A DNA stretch of 64,000 nt from the NCBI GenBank assembly GCA_023261645.1, contig JAHFOO010000005.1, positions 1,565 to 65,564 on the forward strand, read 5' to 3'. A model generated the notes under the pieces. It had not been told where the DNA came from. It did no database searches and saw nothing but the letters and a program-made list of their open reading frames with translations. The position numbers and the translations under genes are program-made. The stretch is from Candidatus Moraniibacteriota bacterium (GTDB taxonomy: Bacteria; Patescibacteriota; Minisyncoccia; Moranbacterales; UBA1568). Of this stretch, positions 2,951 to 22,677 are shown one piece after another (the stretch's first letter is position 1; each line of letters opens with the position of its first letter).

Positions 2951-4276
2951 CTATTTCTTCACTGCTATCAGATCCTTGCCCACGAATGGACGGAGTACTT
3001 CCGGCACGACCACGCTCCCATCGGACTGCTGATAATTTTCGAGGATGGCGATGAGAACACGTGGACTCGGCAGAGCCGTGTTGTTGAGCATATACGCATA
3101 TTTTTTCTCACCCGTCTTCCCGTCTTTATATTTCACATTCAAACGACGCGACTGCCAATCGAGAAAATTCGAAGATGATCCCGTTTCACCATATCGGTTC
3201 ATTCCCGGCATCCACGCTTCCAAATCGAACGCTCTGTATTTACCCGCGCTCATATCACCGCTACAGATCTGCAATTTCCGATATGGAAGTCCGAGCTCGC
3301 GATGCATCTCTTCGGAGAGAGCAAGCATATCATCTTGAATCGTATTCACGGATTCGATATCGGCAGTGGTGATGATGACTTGTTCCACCTTCATAAATTC
3401 ATGCACCCTATACATTCCTTTGGTATCTTTCCCATAGGAACCGATTTCGCTTCGATAACACTGACTGAATCCAGCAAGCTTGAGTGGCAGATTTCTCTCT
3501 TCCAATACCTCTCCCGAATAATATGCAAGGAGCGATGGTTCGGATGTACCGACCAGAAATTTTTCCTCTTTGGCAAGGCTTCCGTCCGCTTCCTTATCTG
3601 AGGTAGCGACCTGATAGATTTCATCGATATTCCCGTCATATTCTGTACCCTTGAAATATCCGCTCCCAAAAAGAGGGAAACCTTTGACGAGAGTCGGCGG
3701 AATCATCGGAGTATATCCTTTGGCTGCCAATTTCTGTATGGCATACATCATCAATCCCATCACGAGGAGTGTCCCTTCATTTTTCAGATAATATCCGCGA
3801 TAGCCGGACACTTTCGTTCCCCGTTCCAGATCCAAAATATCAAGCATCTTCCCGAGTTCGATATGTGTCCGCGGGGGAAATGCGAATGTCGGCACCGCCC
3901 CGGAATTGAACACTTCGACATTCTCCGCATCGCTCTTACCGAGAGGGGTATCGGGCGAAACGATGTTCGGCACATTGGCCATCAGGACATCGAATTCGGT
4001 CTGTATCGCTTCGAGAAACGGCTCTCGCTCATCAAGCTTCATTTTGATCTCTTTTCCTTTGGCAATGATTTCCGCCCGCGCTTCTTCCGTCTCTGCTTGG
4101 TGTATCAGATCATTGATATCATTTTTCAGCGATTTCAGCTCTTCAATTTCCTGAAGGATGCTCCGTCTTTCCCCATCTTTTTTCAGAAGCATTTCGAGAT
4201 CCAAATCTATATGTTTGTTCGCGATAGCACCTGCTAGAGCATCTTTGTTGTCTCGGATGAACTGGATATCTAACAT
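2951..4276 (-). CDS. serS: seryl-tRNA synthetase
   Basis: 441 aa with an N-terminal coiled-coil arm plus a class II core (…FSQCYRSEIGSYGKDTKGMYRVHEF…GSSSNFLDWQSRRL…). Confidence 0.95.
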   Translation of the reverse strand: MLDIQFIRDNKDALAGAIANKHIDLDLEMLLKKDGERRSILQEIEELKSLKNDINDLIHQAETEEARAEIIAKGKEIKMKLDEREPFLEAIQTEFDVLMANVPNIVSPDTPLGKSDAENVEVFNSGAVPTFAFPPRTHIELGKMLDILDLERGTKVSGYRGYYLKNEGTLLVMGLMMYAIQKLAAKGYTPMIPPTLVKGFPLFGSGYFKGTEYDGNIDEIYQVATSDKEADGSLAKEEKFLVGTSEPSLLAYYSGEVLEERNLPLKLAGFSQCYRSEIGSYGKDTKGMYRVHEFMKVEQVIITTADIESVNTIQDDMLALSEEMHRELGLPYRKLQICSGDMSAGKYRAFDLEAWMPGMNRYGETGSSSNFLDWQSRRLNVKYKDGKTGEKKYAYMLNNTALPSPRVLIAILENYQQSDGSVVVPEVLRPFVGKDLIAVKK

Positions 4277-16098: not shown

Positions 16099-16911
16099 TT
16101 ACACCTCCTGACTTTTAAAGAAATCATTGACAGCGTAGGTGAGCTCACTGGGAGTGATCTGTGTTTTGAGAAAGACTCTTTCTGCGATCTTGGAATCGAT
16201 GAGAGCTTGCACATCCCTATCATCGAGGGATGCGGAGAAAAGGAATATCGGCGTATTGTTTTCCGATTCTGCCTCTTTGAGTTTCATCACCAGTTCTCGT
16301 CCATCCATTCCCGGCATCATCACATCAGATATGACAAGATCGAACGTACCGTCCAGAGCTGCATGAAGTCCGGACACTCCATCATGACAAGCTGTTACCT
16401 CGTATCCTTCATCTCTCAGTCGTTTGCCGAACATATCGATGAATATCGCTTCGTCTTCGATGAACAGGATTCGTTTGCCATTTTTTATCTGATCTTCCGG
16501 CGCTTTTTCCTGACGAAGAGAGTTCTTTCCTTGTTCACTGAACTGATTGATGAAACGGTTCACTTCTCCCACAACTTCCGAAGGAGAAAATTCTGTTTTG
16601 GAAATGAAACCATTGGCACCAAGCTTCAGGCATTCTTCACGGTCTTCTTCGGAACTCAGATTGCTGAACACGACGATTTTTATCTCTGGATCATAAGCCG
16701 AGTTGGTACGCAGTTCACGGAGCACTTCCGTACCGCTCAGCTCCGGAATAACCAAATCGAGTAAGATCAAATCAAATTTCTGTTCAAGAGCTTCTTTCAG
16801 TACTGCTCTCCCCGTAGTCACGTTCAATACATCAAAGCCGGAGCTTTCAAACTTCTTTTTATAAATTTCCGCAATAAACGGATCATCTTCAACAAAAAGC
16901 ACTTTCGGCAT
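16099..16911 (-). CDS. response regulator with two tandem receiver (REC) domains and no output domain
   Basis: The first REC carries VLFVEDDPFIAE...DLILLDLVIPELSG. The second REC carries ILFIEDEAIFID...DLVISDVMMPGMDG. No DNA-binding or enzymatic output is present. Confidence 0.8.
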   Translation of the reverse strand: MPKVLFVEDDPFIAEIYKKKFESSGFDVLNVTTGRAVLKEALEQKFDLILLDLVIPELSGTEVLRELRTNSAYDPEIKIVVFSNLSSEEDREECLKLGANGFISKTEFSPSEVVGEVNRFINQFSEQGKNSLRQEKAPEDQIKNGKRILFIEDEAIFIDMFGKRLRDEGYEVTACHDGVSGLHAALDGTFDLVISDVMMPGMDGRELVMKLKEAESENNTPIFLFSASLDDRDVQALIDSKIAERVFLKTQITPSELTYAVNDFFKSQEV

Positions 16912-17073: not shown

Positions 17074-17169
17074 CTAAGCTTTTTCGACAGAAGTCGGTTG
17101 ATCGGACGTACCGGTGTGGATTTTTGGATTGATGAGTGGGAGTTCGATGATGAAACGGGAGCCTTTGTC
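17074..17169 (-). pseudogene. displaced 3'-end fragment A of the sensor histidine kinase gene
   Basis: It is about 88 percent identical to 20938-21038. Read in the kinase frame it encodes DKGSRFIIELPLINPKIHTGTSDQPTSVEKA-stop, against the genuine DKGSRFIIELPIINPKIHIGTSDQPTTAERV-stop. The changes are conservative and the stop codon is retained at the same position. Confidence 0.7.
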
Positions 17170-17195: not shown

Positions 17196-18026
17196 TTAAT
17201 TCAATGTTTTCTTTTTTTGCGAAATCTTCAAATAATTTTTTCTTGAAACAATCCTACTCCCTGATTCAAGTTCAAGTTTTTTCCTGGCATCACCAGCTAT
17301 TTTTCCACCTTTTCTTGCTGCGACTTTATTCTCTACAAATCCTTTTGCATCCTTGCTTCTCGCTATCTTTGTAGTCGAAGCCTCTCCAAGCATAGAAAAG
17401 ATCAACTCCAAATCATCCATATGATCCCGCAGATTTTCTCGTTTGAGTCCTTTGAATTTCTTATACTGGCTTGGTGTCATTCCAAAAGCAGCCTTGGATA
17501 TCTCAGCAGTCAGAATTGCAAATTCTCTATCTTCCTTCACTCCACGATTTTTCCATTCATCCGTCAATTCCTCTCTGATAGCAATTCCTCTCATCCTCTT
17601 CTCAATCCACCCATCAGAGTACCCCTTCAACTTGTAAAGCGTTCGTGTTCTTTTTGTTGCTAGCTCCGGATCTTCAATTTCTTGAATTCTTTCATAACCT
17701 ACTTTAGCAAGCCACCGCTTGAATGGTTCGGCTTTGGGACTCGGAATAGATTGAATGATACGAAAAATACCTTCGGTATCAGCACAGTCTGTCTCATATT
17801 TCTTCCCGTCAGCTGATTCCAATTTCAGTTGTCGACAAATTGTCGATAACTCAATTCCATCATCATTTTTCACTCTAACTTTCATTCTATACCAATAATC
17901 CCGAGCATCAGCGCTATCAGTCAATATTCTAACTACATCCACAACCGAAAACCACCACTCTTTCTCATGAATGATTCTCCGTACTTCTTTCCCTTTAAAT
18001 ATTGCTATGTGTGGCGTTGTTTCCAT
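17196..18026 (-). CDS. Bro-N / DinD-like (DNA-damage-inducible protein D, antirepressor-like) protein
   Basis: Start at METTPHIAIFKGKEVRRIIHEKEWWFSVVDVVRILT. This is the Bro-N signature F..G..VR....E.WF...DV..IL. The C-terminal region is DinD-like. Confidence 0.6.
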   Translation of the reverse strand: METTPHIAIFKGKEVRRIIHEKEWWFSVVDVVRILTDSADARDYWYRMKVRVKNDDGIELSTICRQLKLESADGKKYETDCADTEGIFRIIQSIPSPKAEPFKRWLAKVGYERIQEIEDPELATKRTRTLYKLKGYSDGWIEKRMRGIAIREELTDEWKNRGVKEDREFAILTAEISKAAFGMTPSQYKKFKGLKRENLRDHMDDLELIFSMLGEASTTKIARSKDAKGFVENKVAARKGGKIAGDARKKLELESGSRIVSRKNYLKISQKKKTLN

Positions 18027-18182
18027 GGTGTATTTGTGTTTATATAACTTACATATAAAATTATACAACAAATAAAAGGAAGTCGTCAACAATTTCCTAT
18101 CCTCCCATTTGGAAGGAAAAGTGTCCACGATGTATCTCGTCTTATTCACTCGTCAACAAGGCTAAGGAAAATTCGATTCTGA

Positions 18183-18345
18183 CTACCTCTTCTCCGAATG
18201 GGAAGGTTCATCAGAAGTGCCGATGTGGATTTTTGTGTTTTTAAGTGGAAGTTCGATGATGAATCTCGAACCTTTGTCAGGACCATCACCCTCCATAGGC
18301 GGGCAGGGATTCTTAGCCCAGATTTTGCTATTATGCACTTCGATG
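18183..18345 (-). pseudogene. displaced 3'-end fragment B of the sensor histidine kinase gene
   Basis: Homologous to 20938-21085. In the kinase frame it reads FIEVHNSKIWAKNPCPPMEGDGPDKGSRFIIELPLKNTKIHIGTSDEPSHSEKR-stop, against the genuine FIEAHNGKIWAESDGPDKGSRFIIELPIINPKIHIGTSDQPTTAERV-stop. The frame and stop are preserved. There is a 19-bp identical core GTGCCGATGTGGATTTTTG. Confidence 0.7.
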
Positions 18346-18361
18346 AATAAAGACAAATTTT

Positions 18362-19096
18362 TTATTTCTTTACGAGAGATTCTGCAGTTCTCACGAGATC
18401 ATCTATGAATACTTCACGATTAGTTGCATTCACTAATTGATACTTGCTCCGAAGTTTACGCAGCGACTTTTCATGTATTGGATAATCCATAGGAACAGCT
18501 CCGAATATTCGACGCCAACACGGAGTCGTCTGAACCACTGAATTGAAAAGTTCGGTCACATGCCAACAGAGAAACTGGTTGGATTGCTTTTTGAGTTCGG
18601 GCCGGGTCCGGAACAGATGATGATAGCAGATAAAATGAAGCATTTCATGAGCAATTACGACAGGAATGAGTTTTTTCCGTCGAAAGCGAACAGGAATCTG
18701 AAAAGTCTTGTCATCCAGATAGCGTGGAAACATGCCCCACACTGTCGGATAGGCGATATATTTCCCCTTCGGCCAAAGAAATGTTTCAAAAATTTCATCC
18801 GTTAGCTGAAAAAAAGTCGAAGCTAATTTCTGCCACACATATTTAGCAATACGCATGTCATACTCGATTGACTGACTGTTTTCTTTATATAAATGTCGAA
18901 TCTGTTGCTGTACAATCAAGGGAATAGATTGTCCTACCTTCCAATCACTAAGAGTAGTACGCAATTGTGGCATAACCGAAAAAACCGCTTCCTCAAGAGC
19001 TGAACCACCATCGAAACGCGCGTCACAAAGAAACCCGCTCACAGCGACAATGTCCTTCCTATAACTCCTCGAAAAACGTACACTCGGATGTTTCAT
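18362..19096 (-). CDS. HExxH-motif protein, putative zinc metallopeptidase (candidate leader peptidase)
   Basis: Contains VIAHEMLHFICYHH (HExxHxxCxxH). No other recognisable family signature is visible by eye. The start may be upstream at 19174, overlapping the radical SAM gene by about 20 nt. Confidence 0.45.
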   Translation of the reverse strand: MKHPSVRFSRSYRKDIVAVSGFLCDARFDGGSALEEAVFSVMPQLRTTLSDWKVGQSIPLIVQQQIRHLYKENSQSIEYDMRIAKYVWQKLASTFFQLTDEIFETFLWPKGKYIAYPTVWGMFPRYLDDKTFQIPVRFRRKKLIPVVIAHEMLHFICYHHLFRTRPELKKQSNQFLCWHVTELFNSVVQTTPCWRRIFGAVPMDYPIHEKSLRKLRSKYQLVNATNREVFIDDLVRTAESLVKK

Positions 19097-19154
19097 AAAA
19101 AAATGTGGCGAAGAGAATTCTCTCTTCGCCACTAGTATACAAGAAACCTCGTAT

Positions 19155-20522
19155 TCAAACAACTGTAGTCGCATATGTCTCCCAAATCAACCATTCGAGT
19201 GATTTACGACTGTGCGGACAAATACGACGATCAATATTCCAACGATTGCCAGTACTCAATTCGACGCTTGCTGGACAACCGCCACCACAGATGGCAATGG
19301 CTGGGCAAGACTGACACCCATCTATATAGAATGGGGAACGTGTTCGCCATTCAGCGTGCAATCCAGAAGCAATCGGGTCACCTTTATCATGCACTGACCC
19401 GTGGAAATAGGTTCGTGGCTTCACAAAGTCCTGACAGACACCAATAGCGCCATCCGGGGCAACAATAATTTGGTTGCCACTTACGCCACAATCGACAAAA
19501 ATCGGATCTTGATCCGCGAAAGACTGAACTTTTCGCATCATCCGTTCTTCATAGATTCCGAGATCACGGAAACGTTCGAAAGCCAGGAGAATGCAATCAG
19601 CTGCCCGATCATAGTACTCGTCATCCACAGGAGCCGCTGGCGAAAAGTGTAGGATGTTGAAATTGATCCCGCTTTCCACTCGAAGGTCATTGATGAAAAA
19701 ATCAAGTACTTCATCAAAATGAGCAACAACATCTGGCGTGAGCGTGGCCGAAAGACCAACTTCGATACCAGCCGCCCGAGCAATCTCATAGGCTCGCCGC
19801 GCACCCACAAACGTATCCACACCTTTCTTCTTCGCGATGCGATAGGTATTCGTGTATAGTGCCGGCCCATCGAGAGATATTCCAAGTGCCACCTTTTCCG
19901 TTGCAAGATACTGAGCGAATTCCTCGTCAAGAAGGAGGCCATTGGTGAGGATAACCAGCTTGGTCTCGGATGACAAATCACCACTCTCCTTCCGTTCCGC
20001 TAGTCGGCGAACCGCCCGACGAATTGCTTTCTTGTTCATCAGTGGCTCACCGCCGTAAAGCTGGATAAGCTTCTCGGGATTGACACTGCCATATTGTCCG
20101 GTCAGCCGAGCGAAGGTATCAATTGCTGCATCTACCGTCGACTCGTCCATCTGACGTGCCCGGAACTTCGGGGCACCAGGCGACTCTTCGAAACAGTATG
20201 TACAACGTAAGTTGCACCCGTCCGTCACTAGAAGGTACATGACATCAAGCGGCTGATTGGCTGCGAGCGCGACACGTTGACTTTCCAGTTCGGAATAATC
20301 ATGATTATCTGGCGCAACAAGAAATCGCTTCTCGATGAGATATGGCAACGCTTCGCCAACCTCTTCGCTCCAGATGTCTAATGAACAAACATCTCGTCCT
20401 CCGTGAAGAATGGCTTCTCCTGATGCGCGAGGAAGGTATACAACCTCCATTGTTAAAGCGTGATACAGTGCAGCCACGTTTTCTCGAAAGAAGCAGTGAC
20501 TCCATGTTGATAAACGATACAT
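19155..20522 (-). CDS. radical SAM / SPASM-domain peptide-modifying enzyme (sactisynthase or ranthipeptide-maturase-like)
   Basis: Start at MYRLSTW, with AAGGAG 8 nt upstream. The CxxxCxxC motif is DGCNLRCTYCFE. A roughly 100-aa N-terminal extension precedes the core and may be a peptide-recognition region. The C-terminal auxiliary-cluster Cys motifs are CGVSGNQ...VC... and CQSCPAIAICGGGCP (SPASM-like). Confidence 0.75.
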   Translation of the reverse strand: MYRLSTWSHCFFRENVAALYHALTMEVVYLPRASGEAILHGGRDVCSLDIWSEEVGEALPYLIEKRFLVAPDNHDYSELESQRVALAANQPLDVMYLLVTDGCNLRCTYCFEESPGAPKFRARQMDESTVDAAIDTFARLTGQYGSVNPEKLIQLYGGEPLMNKKAIRRAVRRLAERKESGDLSSETKLVILTNGLLLDEEFAQYLATEKVALGISLDGPALYTNTYRIAKKKGVDTFVGARRAYEIARAAGIEVGLSATLTPDVVAHFDEVLDFFINDLRVESGINFNILHFSPAAPVDDEYYDRAADCILLAFERFRDLGIYEERMMRKVQSFADQDPIFVDCGVSGNQIIVAPDGAIGVCQDFVKPRTYFHGSVHDKGDPIASGLHAEWRTRSPFYIDGCQSCPAIAICGGGCPASVELSTGNRWNIDRRICPHSRKSLEWLIWETYATTVV

Positions 20523-20602
20523 AGTTGTCTCCTTGATGTGAAAAGAGACGGCTCTGGCTCGTTCGCCCACCGTCTCTTTGTTTTTGACCCATCACTAAGT
20601 GA

Positions 20603-20767
20603 TCAGACGACTTGCACCTGGATGGCTGTGGACGACTTGGCATTCGTGCTCCGGCAACGCATGCAAGAGGTATAGCAGCACTTGGGGCCACCGTAGGTAT
20701 CGCTCGAGAGCTTGCGGGAAACCGCAAGTCGCTGTTGCGACGTGGGCACCATGAACTTCTCATTCAT
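20603..20767 (-). CDS. candidate RiPP precursor peptide (54 aa, Cys-rich core)
   Basis: Translates as MNEKFMVPTSQQRLAVSRKLSSDTYGGPKCCYTSCMRCRSTNAKSSTAIQVQVV. The RBS AAAGG lies 8 nt upstream. A GG motif precedes a core with 4 Cys in 9 residues. The gene sits immediately upstream of the radical SAM gene on the same strand. Confidence 0.6.
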   Translation of the reverse strand: MNEKFMVPTSQQRLAVSRKLSSDTYGGPKCCYTSCMRCRSTNAKSSTAIQVQVV

Positions 20768-20937
20768 AATAAACCTTTCAATTGGTAAAAAACACAGGGA
20801 ATTTCCTGCGACCCCATTCAACTACGTTTTTTTCCTTTTGTCAATAATATATCTTTCTTAAAATAAATCATTGTTCGTAAACAGTGTGCCTCATCTCAAT
20901 AGAAAAATATGTTGGAATAAGAAAAAATATTTCACAA

Positions 20938-22677
20938 TCAAACTCTTTCCGCAGTAGTCGGTTGATCGGACGTGCCGATGTGGATTTTTGGATTGATGAT
21001 CGGAAGTTCGATGATGAAACGGGAGCCTTTGTCCGGGCCATCTGATTCGGCCCAGATTTTGCCATTATGCGCCTCGATGAAACTCTTGCCGACATAGAGA
21101 CCGAGGCCCGCACCAGACACCACCATTCTTGTCGTTTCCTTGCTCCGGAGAAATTTCTGGAAGAGATTCTTCTTGTCTTCTTCGTGGATGCCGATGCCGG
21201 TATCAGAGACGATGATACGTGCCATATCAGTCGTGCTTTCGAGCGACACCGTCACACCACCCTCTTTGGTGTATTTCACCGCATTGTCAATCAAATTGGA
21301 CACCACTTCTTTGATTTTGTTCGGATCGATGGTGATGAGAGGGAGAGGAGTTTTCTGGAGTTTCATCGTCAGTGTCAGATTTTTCTCTTTAGCCGATGGC
21401 TTGAACATATCCACAAGTTCCGCAATAATCGGCTCGAGCTGTGTCGGCGCGAAACTGTGCTGGATGCGTCCTGCCTCGATACGGGAGACATTGAGCAGAT
21501 CCTCGACGAGATGCACGAGACGGCTGTTCACCGAGTAAAGTTTGTTCAAAACATCGAGAACCGGAGCAGAGATGGTGCCGTACGAACCTTCGAGAAGGAG
21601 GGAGATATATCCTTTGATGGCGGTCAGCGGTGTGCGGAGCTGATGCGATGCGATAGAAATAAACTCCGACTTGGTCAGATCCAATTCCTTCAACCGCTGA
21701 TTGGCGATGACCAAAGCATCAGATATTTTCTGAAGCTGTTCCTTCCGTTCAATTTCTTTCTTCACGGATTTTATAAGAAACCATCCGGCACCAGATGTAA
21801 TCACAAGTGTTATTACTGTCAAAATCTGATTTGTCAGATTCTTGGAAAAAAAGAGCATCGAACCAATAAGAACAAACTGTGCCACTACCAACGCCTGTGC
21901 TCCAATGAGCTTTATATCAAAGGCTTTAAATTTCACAATGAGATATCCCAAAAACCCAATAAACACTGGCATCCCGAAAAGACCATACTGCGCCATTGTC
22001 CAATCTTCAGTAAAACTCCCAACAATATTGCCCCAAGAAAATGCAAACAAAAATAAAACCATACCGATTCCGAAAAATTTTATTCTTTTCCTGTCAATAA
22101 CGTCTTGCGAAGTTTTATATGCCTTAACACAAAGAGCTATTATCCATAATGTAAGTAGTGTTTCTACAATGTAACTATAGTAAATAATAACAAGGCCCTC
22201 GTTTGCATCACATATCATTAGATTAATCCCGCTTAGACTGTATTTTGTTGGGATTAACATGACGAACGGGACAATCGACAAGATAGATATTATGTTGGTT
22301 TTAAATGAAATATTTTTGTAACCCACGAAAAAATACATCAGATATAGACTACAAAAGAATATAAATGGCTCTATCAAAATTTGAAGCGACCAAAGAAAAA
22401 GAACTACATCACCCCTATTACTTGCCCAAACCACCAAATCGAATACTGCATATAAGGAAAAAAGAATAACCAGCGATAGCAAAGTTTTCGTAGCTGATGT
22501 TTTCTTATTTAAAAATATGAACACCCCTAGCAACAAAGCTACTAAAACAGCAGGAATATGCGAATAGTAAAGAATGTCTGGAACATTACTAGAAAAAATT
22601 AGATAACTAGGATCTTCCCAAGGACAAGTTAACATAATCGTTGTATATTTATTGCTTGATAAAGAACTACCAAACAA
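20938..22677 (-). CDS. sensor histidine kinase with a multi-pass N-terminal membrane sensor domain
   Basis: 579 aa with roughly 8-9 predicted TM helices. It has HisKA (ISIASHQLRTPLTAIKGY) and HATPase_c (NLIDNAVKYT...DTGIGI...GAGLGL) domains. Confidence 0.85.
   Translation of the reverse strand: MFGSSLSSNKYTTIMLTCPWEDPSYLIFSSNVPDILYYSHIPAVLVALLLGVFIFLNKKTSATKTLLSLVILFSLYAVFDLVVWASNRGDVVLFLWSLQILIEPFIFFCSLYLMYFFVGYKNISFKTNIISILSIVPFVMLIPTKYSLSGINLMICDANEGLVIIYYSYIVETLLTLWIIALCVKAYKTSQDVIDRKRIKFFGIGMVLFLFAFSWGNIVGSFTEDWTMAQYGLFGMPVFIGFLGYLIVKFKAFDIKLIGAQALVVAQFVLIGSMLFFSKNLTNQILTVITLVITSGAGWFLIKSVKKEIERKEQLQKISDALVIANQRLKELDLTKSEFISIASHQLRTPLTAIKGYISLLLEGSYGTISAPVLDVLNKLYSVNSRLVHLVEDLLNVSRIEAGRIQHSFAPTQLEPIIAELVDMFKPSAKEKNLTLTMKLQKTPLPLITIDPNKIKEVVSNLIDNAVKYTKEGGVTVSLESTTDMARIIVSDTGIGIHEEDKKNLFQKFLRSKETTRMVVSGAGLGLYVGKSFIEAHNGKIWAESDGPDKGSRFIIELPIINPKIHIGTSDQPTTAERV

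Follow-up and report, generated by a model that had tools for sequence, protein, structure and literature searches.

A 64,000-nt stretch of DNA from a Candidatus Moraniibacteriota bacterium (contig JAHFOO010000005.1; hereafter the window) carries three consecutive minus-strand genes encoding a small Cys-rich peptide, a radical S-adenosylmethionine (SAM)/SPASM enzyme, and a protein with an HExxH motif. These genes raise the question of whether they make a ribosomally synthesized, post-translationally modified peptide (RiPP) and, if so, of what kind. We analyzed the trio, that is, the precursor, the radical SAM/SPASM maturase, and the HExxH gene, in the window and in related loci. The results indicated that the trio is very probably a genuine RiPP operon. 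The best explanation, to which we assign a probability of roughly 0.6, is a self-contained, horizontally mobile operon for a thioether-crosslinked (ranthipeptide- or sactipeptide-like) RiPP with its own dedicated leader peptidase. The three genes and their parts, in the order of the operon, are as follows.

20603-20767, minus strand: precursor gene, 54 amino acids; leader approximately residues 1-29, core 30-38, follower tail 39-54
20654-20680, minus strand: precursor core CCYTSCMRC; family consensus C-C-x-T-x-C-x-R-C
19155-20522, minus strand: radical SAM/SPASM maturase, 455 amino acids; Pfam Radical_SAM, best NCBIfam match TIGR04136
20259-20522, minus strand: N-terminal domain of the maturase, residues 1-88, like a RiPP recognition element (RRE) in the predicted structure
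20193-20216, minus strand: CX3CX2C motif CNLRCTYC at maturase residues 103-110; invariant across all 30 homologues aligned
19218-19490, minus strand: SPASM domain with seven invariant Cys, C345 to C435
18362-19096, minus strand: HExxH zincin-like protein, 244 amino acids; HEMLH at 18649-18635 (residues 150-154), candidate third ligand E182 at 18553-18551

An initial annotation, made from the letters of the window alone, had described a compact RiPP-like cluster here, and all the sequence features that it listed were recovered in place on the minus strand. The precursor (MNEKFMVPTSQQRLAVSRKLSSDTYGGPKCCYTSCMRCRSTNAKSSTAIQVQVV) has GAAAGG 7 nt 5' of its ATG. A gap of 80 nt, with an AAGGAG ribosome-binding site ahead of the ATG, separates it from the maturase, which has 455 residues rather than the 456 first counted and carries the CNLRCTYC and SPASM-type Cys motifs (residues 403-416, CQSCPAIAICGGGC) that had been ascribed to it. 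After a further 58 nt comes the HEMLH-bearing protein, originally put at 245-270 amino acids. Its longest open reading frame (ORF; 19174-18362) encodes 270 amino acids; because every homologue begins at the equivalent of MKHPSVRF, at 19096, its length was taken as 244 amino acids.

The conservation of the trio was assessed in 25 genome loci, 80 metagenome loci, and two contigs of the closest relatives. Both enzymes were present in 86 of the sampled loci, 67 of them unique, and the trio was kept together across these 67. Precursors were counted in loci whose maturase was at least 40% identical, with at least 260 nt of upstream sequence required, and HExxH genes in related loci with at least 900 nt of downstream sequence. 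A homologous small ORF with the same core lay upstream of the maturase in 70 of the 75 loci with enough 5' DNA, and of the five loci that gave none, L082 at least has a variant core that falls outside the search pattern. The HExxH gene lay directly 3' of the maturase in 82 of the 83 loci with enough downstream DNA. The three-gene arrangement is thus a conserved unit and not a chance neighbourhood. Searches at E ≤ 1e-5 returned more than 649 maturase homologues, and nearly all of those that bear a name belong to Patescibacteria, the candidate phyla radiation (Paceibacterota, Moraniibacteriota, Portnoybacteria, Azambacteria, Liptonbacteria, and others). The trio is a widespread Patescibacteria family rather than an oddity of a single genome. 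Four trio-bearing contigs (L002, L005, L018, and L024) are labelled "uncultured Gammaproteobacteria" in automatically binned third-party annotation assemblies, which is probably mislabelling or a binning artefact; every other named trio record among the genome contigs is from Patescibacteria. When the ORFs of 22 loci were clustered all against all, no other gene family of functional interest proved common to them. No transporter, immunity protein, or sulfatase was present in these loci or among the neighbours in the window, and the remark in the initial annotation that transporter and immunity genes were missing from the window held for the 22 related loci as well.

The related loci yielded 54 unique precursors of 37-71 amino acids. 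Their cores occur in 25 variants of the consensus, of which CCYTSCTRC is the commonest, and in some, for example CKCYTSCTRC and CPCYTSCTRC, the first Cys has moved by one residue. Among 30 diverse precursors, C31, C35, R37, and C38 were invariant, and C30 and T33 were at least 90% conserved. The same precursors share a hydrophobic-basic leader motif, (V/I)x(P/L)xxxxRxK(V/I)LG, with an invariant Arg. To judge from its sequence, this stretch may be the kind of segment that an RRE would bind. Over the 10-15 residues ahead of the core, the sequence varies. For the window compared with loci L001 and L026, the dN/dS of leader plus core was 0.05-0.14 (dS 0.6-1.2), indicating clear purifying selection. 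The precursor at the head of the proposed cluster is thus real, and the proviso that its small ORF might prove unconserved or free of selection in relatives fell away. No NCBIfam or Pfam model matched the precursors, and the 49 database proteins matched by the precursor profile were all either unnamed or called "hypothetical protein".

The precursor ends within 0-1 residue of the core in 43 of the 54 unique sequences. In the window and the three relatives closest to it (L001, L026, and L027), the core is instead followed by a tail of 12-16 residues, 16 in the window, with poor conservation, and this long C-terminal tail is specific to the window's clade. The leader had initially been read as ending in a GG motif (DTYGG). 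This did not survive the comparison, as only a minority of the 54 precursors have GG ahead of the core and the motif is not a family feature. The clustered loci also contain no C39 double-glycine processing machinery and no transporter, and the family falls outside the double-glycine/C39 exporter systems. A different Cys-rich precursor (...CACHCQCVCNCPSTCANCK..., at approximately 3600-3876) was observed in locus L098, where the maturase is 33% identical and the HExxH homologue (820-1551) lies 3 kb upstream rather than downstream.

The maturase matched the Pfam models Radical_SAM (PF04055; 60.3 bits against a cut-off of 29.5, E = 3.4e-16) and Fer4_12 only; the Pfam SPASM model (PF13186) gave no match to the window protein at E ≤ 0.01 and is on record for three homologues. 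In the alignment of 30 homologues, exactly ten Cys were invariant, namely the CX3CX2C triad and seven SPASM Cys in the wholly invariant pattern C345-x12-G358-x4-C363, C403-x2-C406-x5-C412-x3-C416, and C435. The seven Cys fit the SPASM pattern CX9-15GX4C ... CX2CX5CX3C ... C, and the maturase therefore belongs to the radical SAM superfamily and to its SPASM subfamily. Since seven SPASM Cys serve two [4Fe-4S] clusters, auxiliary cluster I has three protein ligands, as in CteB and SuiB. In enzymes with a three-Cys auxiliary cluster I, the fourth ligand is either another Cys or the substrate (PMC10878394).

The AlphaFold2 model of the maturase had a pLDDT of 93, with values of at least 90 over residues 1-100. 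Its N-terminus was predicted to form strands at residues 2-4, 8-13, 16-21, and 27-31 followed by helices at 32-41, 48-64, and 75-88, the strand-then-helix order expected of the winged helix of an RRE (three strands and then three helices), which suggests that residues 1-88 form an RRE-like domain. This domain lies inside the full-length Foldseek alignments to CteB and TigE, the N-termini of which are RREs (PMC10878394). A sequence-profile match to an RRE was not obtained for it, so the RRE-type extension proposed in the initial annotation was borne out by the fold order of the model and not by profile search.

Curated families placed the enzyme among peptide maturases. The best NCBIfam match was TIGR04136 of the FibroRumin system (241.1 bits against a cut-off of 400), followed in descending order by PapB (117 bits), nif11-type, QhpD, DynA, the SCIFF maturase (88.7 bits), and the anaerobic sulfatase maturase (79.6 bits). 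The top curated matches, FibroRumin, PapB, and SCIFF included, are all maturases of Cys-rich or crosslinked peptides. The profile search suggested at the outset thus ended on a peptide maturase, at a score below the family cut-off. These scores also bear on the alternative that the maturase is an anaerobic sulfatase-maturating enzyme (anSME) next to a fortuitous small ORF. anSME structures do appear among the Foldseek matches, but they align over approximately 380-390 columns of the 455-residue model, as against 453-490 for CteB and TigE, and the 79.6 bits to TIGR03942 compare with a cut-off of 349 and lie below ten peptide-maturase models. No sulfatase was found within 10 kb or in the 22 related loci, and the small ORF is both conserved and subject to selection. 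To our knowledge, anSMEs have no N-terminal RRE domain. We regard this alternative, which the initial annotation had itself named as its possible undoing, as refuted.

With the whole maturase model as query, the top Foldseek structures were TigE, CteB, anSME, ChlB, and SuiB, all 14-19% identical in sequence, with approximately 18-19% for the nearest of them, TigE and CteB included. The best TM-score was obtained with CteB (PDB 5WGG; TMq 0.77) and the best E-value with TigE (PDB 8VPO; 6e-22). The alignment to the FibroRumin model TIGR04136 ran from end to end (maturase residues 5-450 against model positions 2-454 of 458), N-terminal domain included, and fell short of the equivalog cut-off. The FibroRumin name presumably refers to rumen Fibrobacter and Ruminococcus hosts; the hosts of the window family are Patescibacteria, and the family comes with an HExxH partner of its own. 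The searchable literature yielded no paper on the FibroRumin system.

The SCIFF ranthipeptide system CteA-CteB resembles the trio in that an RRE is combined with radical SAM and seven-Cys SPASM domains. SCIFF precursors are small, Cys-rich, and strongly conserved across a large clade, with no dedicated exporter known, and the thioether acceptor in CteA is Thr. The window maturase is 18% identical to CteB and lies outside the SCIFF family (TIGR03974, cut-off 425 bits); its core packs four Cys into 9 residues, whereas SCIFF has six Cys in approximately 45 residues, and the HExxH partner gene is specific to the window family. The PapB/freyrasin ranthipeptide maturases, the second-best NCBIfam match, are likewise thioether-forming SPASM enzymes and act on Cys-containing repeats. 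Their acceptors are Asp or Glu in CX3D/E repeats, which are absent from the window core. The PapB score is below the cut-off of 340 bits, and the alignment begins at residue 95, which leaves the N-terminal domain outside it.

Taken together, these comparisons slightly favour thioether chemistry for the window maturase, because the core is dominated by Cys, the enzyme is of the SPASM type, and the nearest curated families act mostly on Cys-rich peptides. The same operon could instead perform another radical reaction (a C-C or C-O crosslink, epimerization, or Cys oxidation or dehydrogenation), with the four Cys serving later as metal ligands or in disulfides. For this speaks the fact that the closest solved relative by both sequence and Foldseek E-value (approximately 6e-21) is TigE, a cyclopropylglycine synthase like TvgB. 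TigE has the same three-domain layout, RRE included (PMC10878394). In cyclopropyl synthases, a GYW motif whose Tyr is a ligand of auxiliary cluster I is strictly conserved (PMC10878394), but GYW was absent from all 30 window-family homologues, and the maturase is accordingly not a member of the cyclopropyl synthases. The window precursors lack the repeated Val/Ile motif, the core contains no conserved Val or Ile and no strictly conserved aromatic residue, and its invariant residues are Cys and Arg only. Where a Cys-rich core goes with a seven-Cys SPASM enzyme, the outcome has so far mostly been a thioether. We consider a different radical chemistry unlikely.

Several observations weigh against the thioether operon as we read it. 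The only invariant non-Cys residue of the core is Arg, for which we know of no report as a thioether acceptor, while Thr is conserved at approximately 90%. Core position 3 may be Y, F, W, H, Q, or N, and positions 5 and 7 also vary. The C-x3-C-x2-C spacing of the core is also a metal- or Fe-S-binding spacing. The maturase reaches no curated NCBIfam cut-off. Its chemistry is not transferable by homology, because the identity to solved relatives is so low and the best E-value belongs to a cyclopropylglycine synthase. No cleavage site can be named, since the leader-core junction is not conserved, and no exporter was found in any locus.

The leader peptidase of the proposed operon would be the HExxH protein. 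A word-index search returned 211 homologues of it, and an exhaustive profile search gave 729 clusters at 50% identity, 383 of them at E ≤ 1e-10. None of these clusters bears a name beyond "hypothetical" except for one automatic "SprT family" label. H150, E151, H154, E182, N185, H208, R125, Q133, and several aromatic residues are invariant in the family. In the AlphaFold2 model (pLDDT 94), which is zincin-like as the initial proposal of a peptidase would have it, a helical N-terminal domain of approximately 100 residues precedes the catalytic-type part, the motif sits on the helix 141-164, and a small sheet separates this helix from the next long one, which carries E182. The model thus predicts the gluzincin arrangement of HExxH and E182 in a zincin-like fold, and the protein would be of the gluzincin type. 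Foldseek gave nothing significant (best E = 0.4), including against the gluzincins (M1 aminopeptidases, thermolysin, and botulinum neurotoxin light chains) and the minimal zincins (Wss1/SprT), from which the N-terminal helical domain also distinguishes the window protein. No Pfam, NCBIfam, or PDB sequence match was obtained, and no NCBIfam model matched any of 36 members at E ≤ 1. Profile searches of PDB, Pfam, and NCBIfam gave weak matches at most, to SprT, DUF3267, and DUF5700, all putative peptidases. We conclude that a peptidase role is probable.

The alternative that the HExxH protein is an alpha-ketoglutarate/Fe(II)-dependent oxygenase or another tailoring enzyme, hydroxylating or oxidatively trimming the peptide, was retained because ChlH-type HExxH oxygenases share the zincin-like fold and the radical SAM RiPP context. 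Such enzymes are found beside radical SAM maturases and are able to take off C-terminal residues by oxidation (PMC12636437). The window clade's C-terminal tail needs removal, and the invariant Arg125 and His208 could bind alpha-ketoglutarate and metal. Against this, the family model of these oxygenases (ChlH, BpmH, and PflC; IPR026337, which we take to correspond to NCBIfam TIGR04267) gave no match among the 36 members searched, and the window protein is encoded by a separate gene rather than fused to the maturase and does not belong to that family. The helix after the motif bears the invariant Glu, the classical third ligand of gluzincins, and the weak profile matches are all to peptidase families. 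The partner maturase is oxygen-sensitive, and Patescibacteria are mostly anaerobic fermenters. An oxygenase in this position therefore appears improbable, more so than a different chemistry of the maturase.

Some distant relatives of the two enzymes were observed in other settings. Distant HExxH members without a radical SAM gene were found in L108 (948-2573) and L110 (1334-2110). One is a 541-residue protein with a second HExxH-containing half (LVHELIHK), and the other follows a gene that resembles ribonucleotide reductase by eye only. Since these members have no radical SAM partner, the wider family gives no functional clue. Maturase relatives approximately 30% identical in Bryobacteraceae and Nonomuraea (L021, 2173-3666; L022, 2526-3794) are preceded by an unrelated HExxH protein of approximately 420-500 amino acids with the motif SHEIAGHAVQ, which suggests that the pairing of radical SAM and HExxH proteins arose more than once.

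The product might be not a secreted bioactive peptide but an intracellular cofactor or a metal or Fe-S binder cut from the precursor C-terminus in the manner of pyrroloquinoline quinone (PQQ) and mycofactocin. An RRE, a radical SAM/SPASM enzyme, and a peptidase are the logic of both those pathways. The core lies at the extreme C-terminus in most precursors and is nearly invariant although the maturase diverges to 44% identity, and neither an exporter nor an immunity gene was found in any locus. The CCx3Cx2C spacing of the core, the same as that of the radical SAM cluster motif, resembles a cluster- or metal-binding motif. The near-invariant tetra-Cys core could then become an intracellular metal- or Fe-S-binding or redox-active small molecule or signal that needs no exporter, instead of a further thioether peptide of the antimicrobial type; it would be a counterpart of PQQ or mycofactocin peculiar to the ultra-small Patescibacteria and spread as a promoter-equipped cassette. 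A new type of crosslink that uses the invariant Arg may be a related possibility. However, no added tailoring or redox partner gene equivalent to PqqB/C or MftD was found among the loci, and the module, being patchy in occurrence and mobile, does not look like part of a core metabolic set. SCIFF-type peptides show the same conservation and lack of an exporter, yet they are not known to be cofactors. We hold a cofactor to be rather unlikely.

The following expression signals were located in the module.

20816-20844, minus strand: sigma-70-like promoter; TTGACA (20844-20839), 17-nt spacer, TTGAAT (20821-20816)
20793-20810, minus strand: hairpin CGCAGGAAATTCCCTGTG in the 5' untranslated region (5'-UTR), then a T-run; terminator-like, directly past the predicted transcription start
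20542-20579, minus strand: hairpin in the precursor-maturase gap (AAAGAGACGG...CCGTCTCTTT, then UUUC); putative read-through attenuator
19097-19132, minus strand: hairpin in the maturase-HExxH gap, 12 bp (7 GC) with a T7 run; terminator-like, z = -9.3

The promoter is kept nearly base for base in L001 and L026, and all sequence further 5' is unrelated. The TTG that would give a 72-residue ORF lies at the -10 element, which leaves the ATG at 20767 as the earliest start that the precursor can use. In the same two loci, the stem of the 5'-UTR hairpin (CGCAGG...CCCTGT) is kept, with differences in the loop and the inner bases. The precursor-maturase gap measures 47-125 nt in all loci but one (median approximately 80 nt). 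Its hairpin in the window had a folding energy of -31 kcal/mol for the 101-nt region (z = -2.7), and an equivalent hairpin was present in 87% of 53 unique loci, with a median z of -3.4 against shuffled sequences and unrelated stem sequences. A hairpin with a U-run between maturase and HExxH gene, often stronger than the first, was found in 83% of 47 loci, again with the structure kept and the sequence not. This hairpin abuts the start codon of the HExxH gene, which has no Shine-Dalgarno sequence before it. The intergenic hairpins are probably read-through terminators that grade expression in the descending order precursor, maturase, and HExxH protein.

The mobility of the module was apparent from its borders. 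When L001, L026, and L027 were compared with the whole window by tblastx, similarity was confined to approximately 18366-20790. Nucleotide alignment extended it to the promoter, and it ended at the HExxH stop codon. The trio and its promoter thus travel together between unrelated contexts as an independently mobile module. In the window, two further features mark the insertion.

20940-21081, minus strand: 3'-terminal stretch of the intact histidine kinase gene (20938-22677; Pfam HisKA and HATPase_c); upstream insertion boundary
18185-18347, minus strand: displaced copy B of the kinase 3' end, directly past the HExxH stop; 66% amino acid identity to the last 53 kinase residues

A third copy of the kinase 3' end lies at 17076-17169, and the two displaced copies are 89% and approximately 70% identical to the intact one at the nucleotide level. 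These copies bound the RiPP trio and, as a second cassette, a Bro-N gene (17196-18149), both inserted between the kinase and its response regulator gene (16099-16911); no integrase was found near them in the window. The trio had been described as sitting in an acquired cassette, and its place between duplicated kinase 3' ends, together with the confinement of the relatives' similarity to the module, upheld that description. Besides the kinase, Bro-N, and response regulator genes, the neighbours in the window encode a NUDIX protein, aspartyl-tRNA synthetase, a methyltransferase, deoxyhypusine synthase, and SAM decarboxylase.

Other possible signs of acquisition or association were set aside. 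GC content is weak evidence, being 0.47-0.53 in the trio while the adjacent half of the kinase gene reaches 0.49. A functional link to the adjacent kinase and response regulator was rejected as a conserved association, because kinase genes are no commoner near the trio than expected (approximately 7-8 unique loci, about one per 90 kb of locus DNA against one per 64 kb in the window). Repeats span the trio in 12 of 47 unique loci and comprise promoter/terminator units, an rRNA spacer, and gene 3' ends. They are heterogeneous, and non-spanning pairs are equally frequent (17 versus 18 pairs). Flanking direct repeats were accordingly rejected as a general insertion signature, and only the triplicated kinase 3' end of the window is convincing. 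In L016 (3528-3622/6261-6354/8116-8214), L061 (5660-5792/8166-8292/11311-11388), L008, and L017, repeated promoter/terminator units of 70-140 nt separate the trio from its neighbours in a cassette-array-like manner; these units are not specific to the trio. Carriage by phages was not supported, as IMG/VR held no close relative (best match 25% identical).

From these results, we propose the following pathway. Transcription would start at the module's own promoter, and the hairpins would probably grade the output downward from precursor through maturase to HExxH protein. The 54-residue precursor would dock through its conserved leader (..VP.sqqR.aV.rKL..) on the RRE-like domain of the maturase. 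SAM would be cleaved at the CX3CX2C cluster, and the resulting 5'-deoxyadenosyl radical would take a hydrogen from a core residue; the acceptor would most likely be Thr or Arg, both conserved in C-C-x-T-x-C-x-R-C. A core Cys, probably bound to auxiliary cluster I at its open iron site, would then form an intramolecular thioether. One to several such crosslinks would give a very small knotted peptide, from which the zincin-like HExxH protein would cut off the leader and, in the window clade, possibly the variable C-terminal tail too.

The kind of system represented by the trio, an RRE and a radical SAM/SPASM enzyme acting with a Cys-rich precursor, is already well known. The precursor family, the nine-residue core, the dedicated HExxH family, the double-hairpin layout, and the Patescibacteria-wide distribution are outside the curated libraries and the literature found, and no paper on this combination of precursor, maturase, and HExxH protein was found in the searchable literature.

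Patescibacteria have tiny genomes, and little secondary metabolism is known from them; a peptide-maturation module that many of their lineages retain, its core all but invariant, must be useful to its hosts. The module measures approximately 2.5 kb, promoter included, a size that allows direct synthesis and expression and makes its chemistry directly testable. If the thioethers to Thr and Arg are real, the product would be among the smallest ranthipeptide-like scaffolds known to us; if the crosslinks are not thioethers, the maturase would carry out a new reaction for a SPASM enzyme. Either outcome would provide a first handle on the role of such peptides in episymbiotic bacteria.

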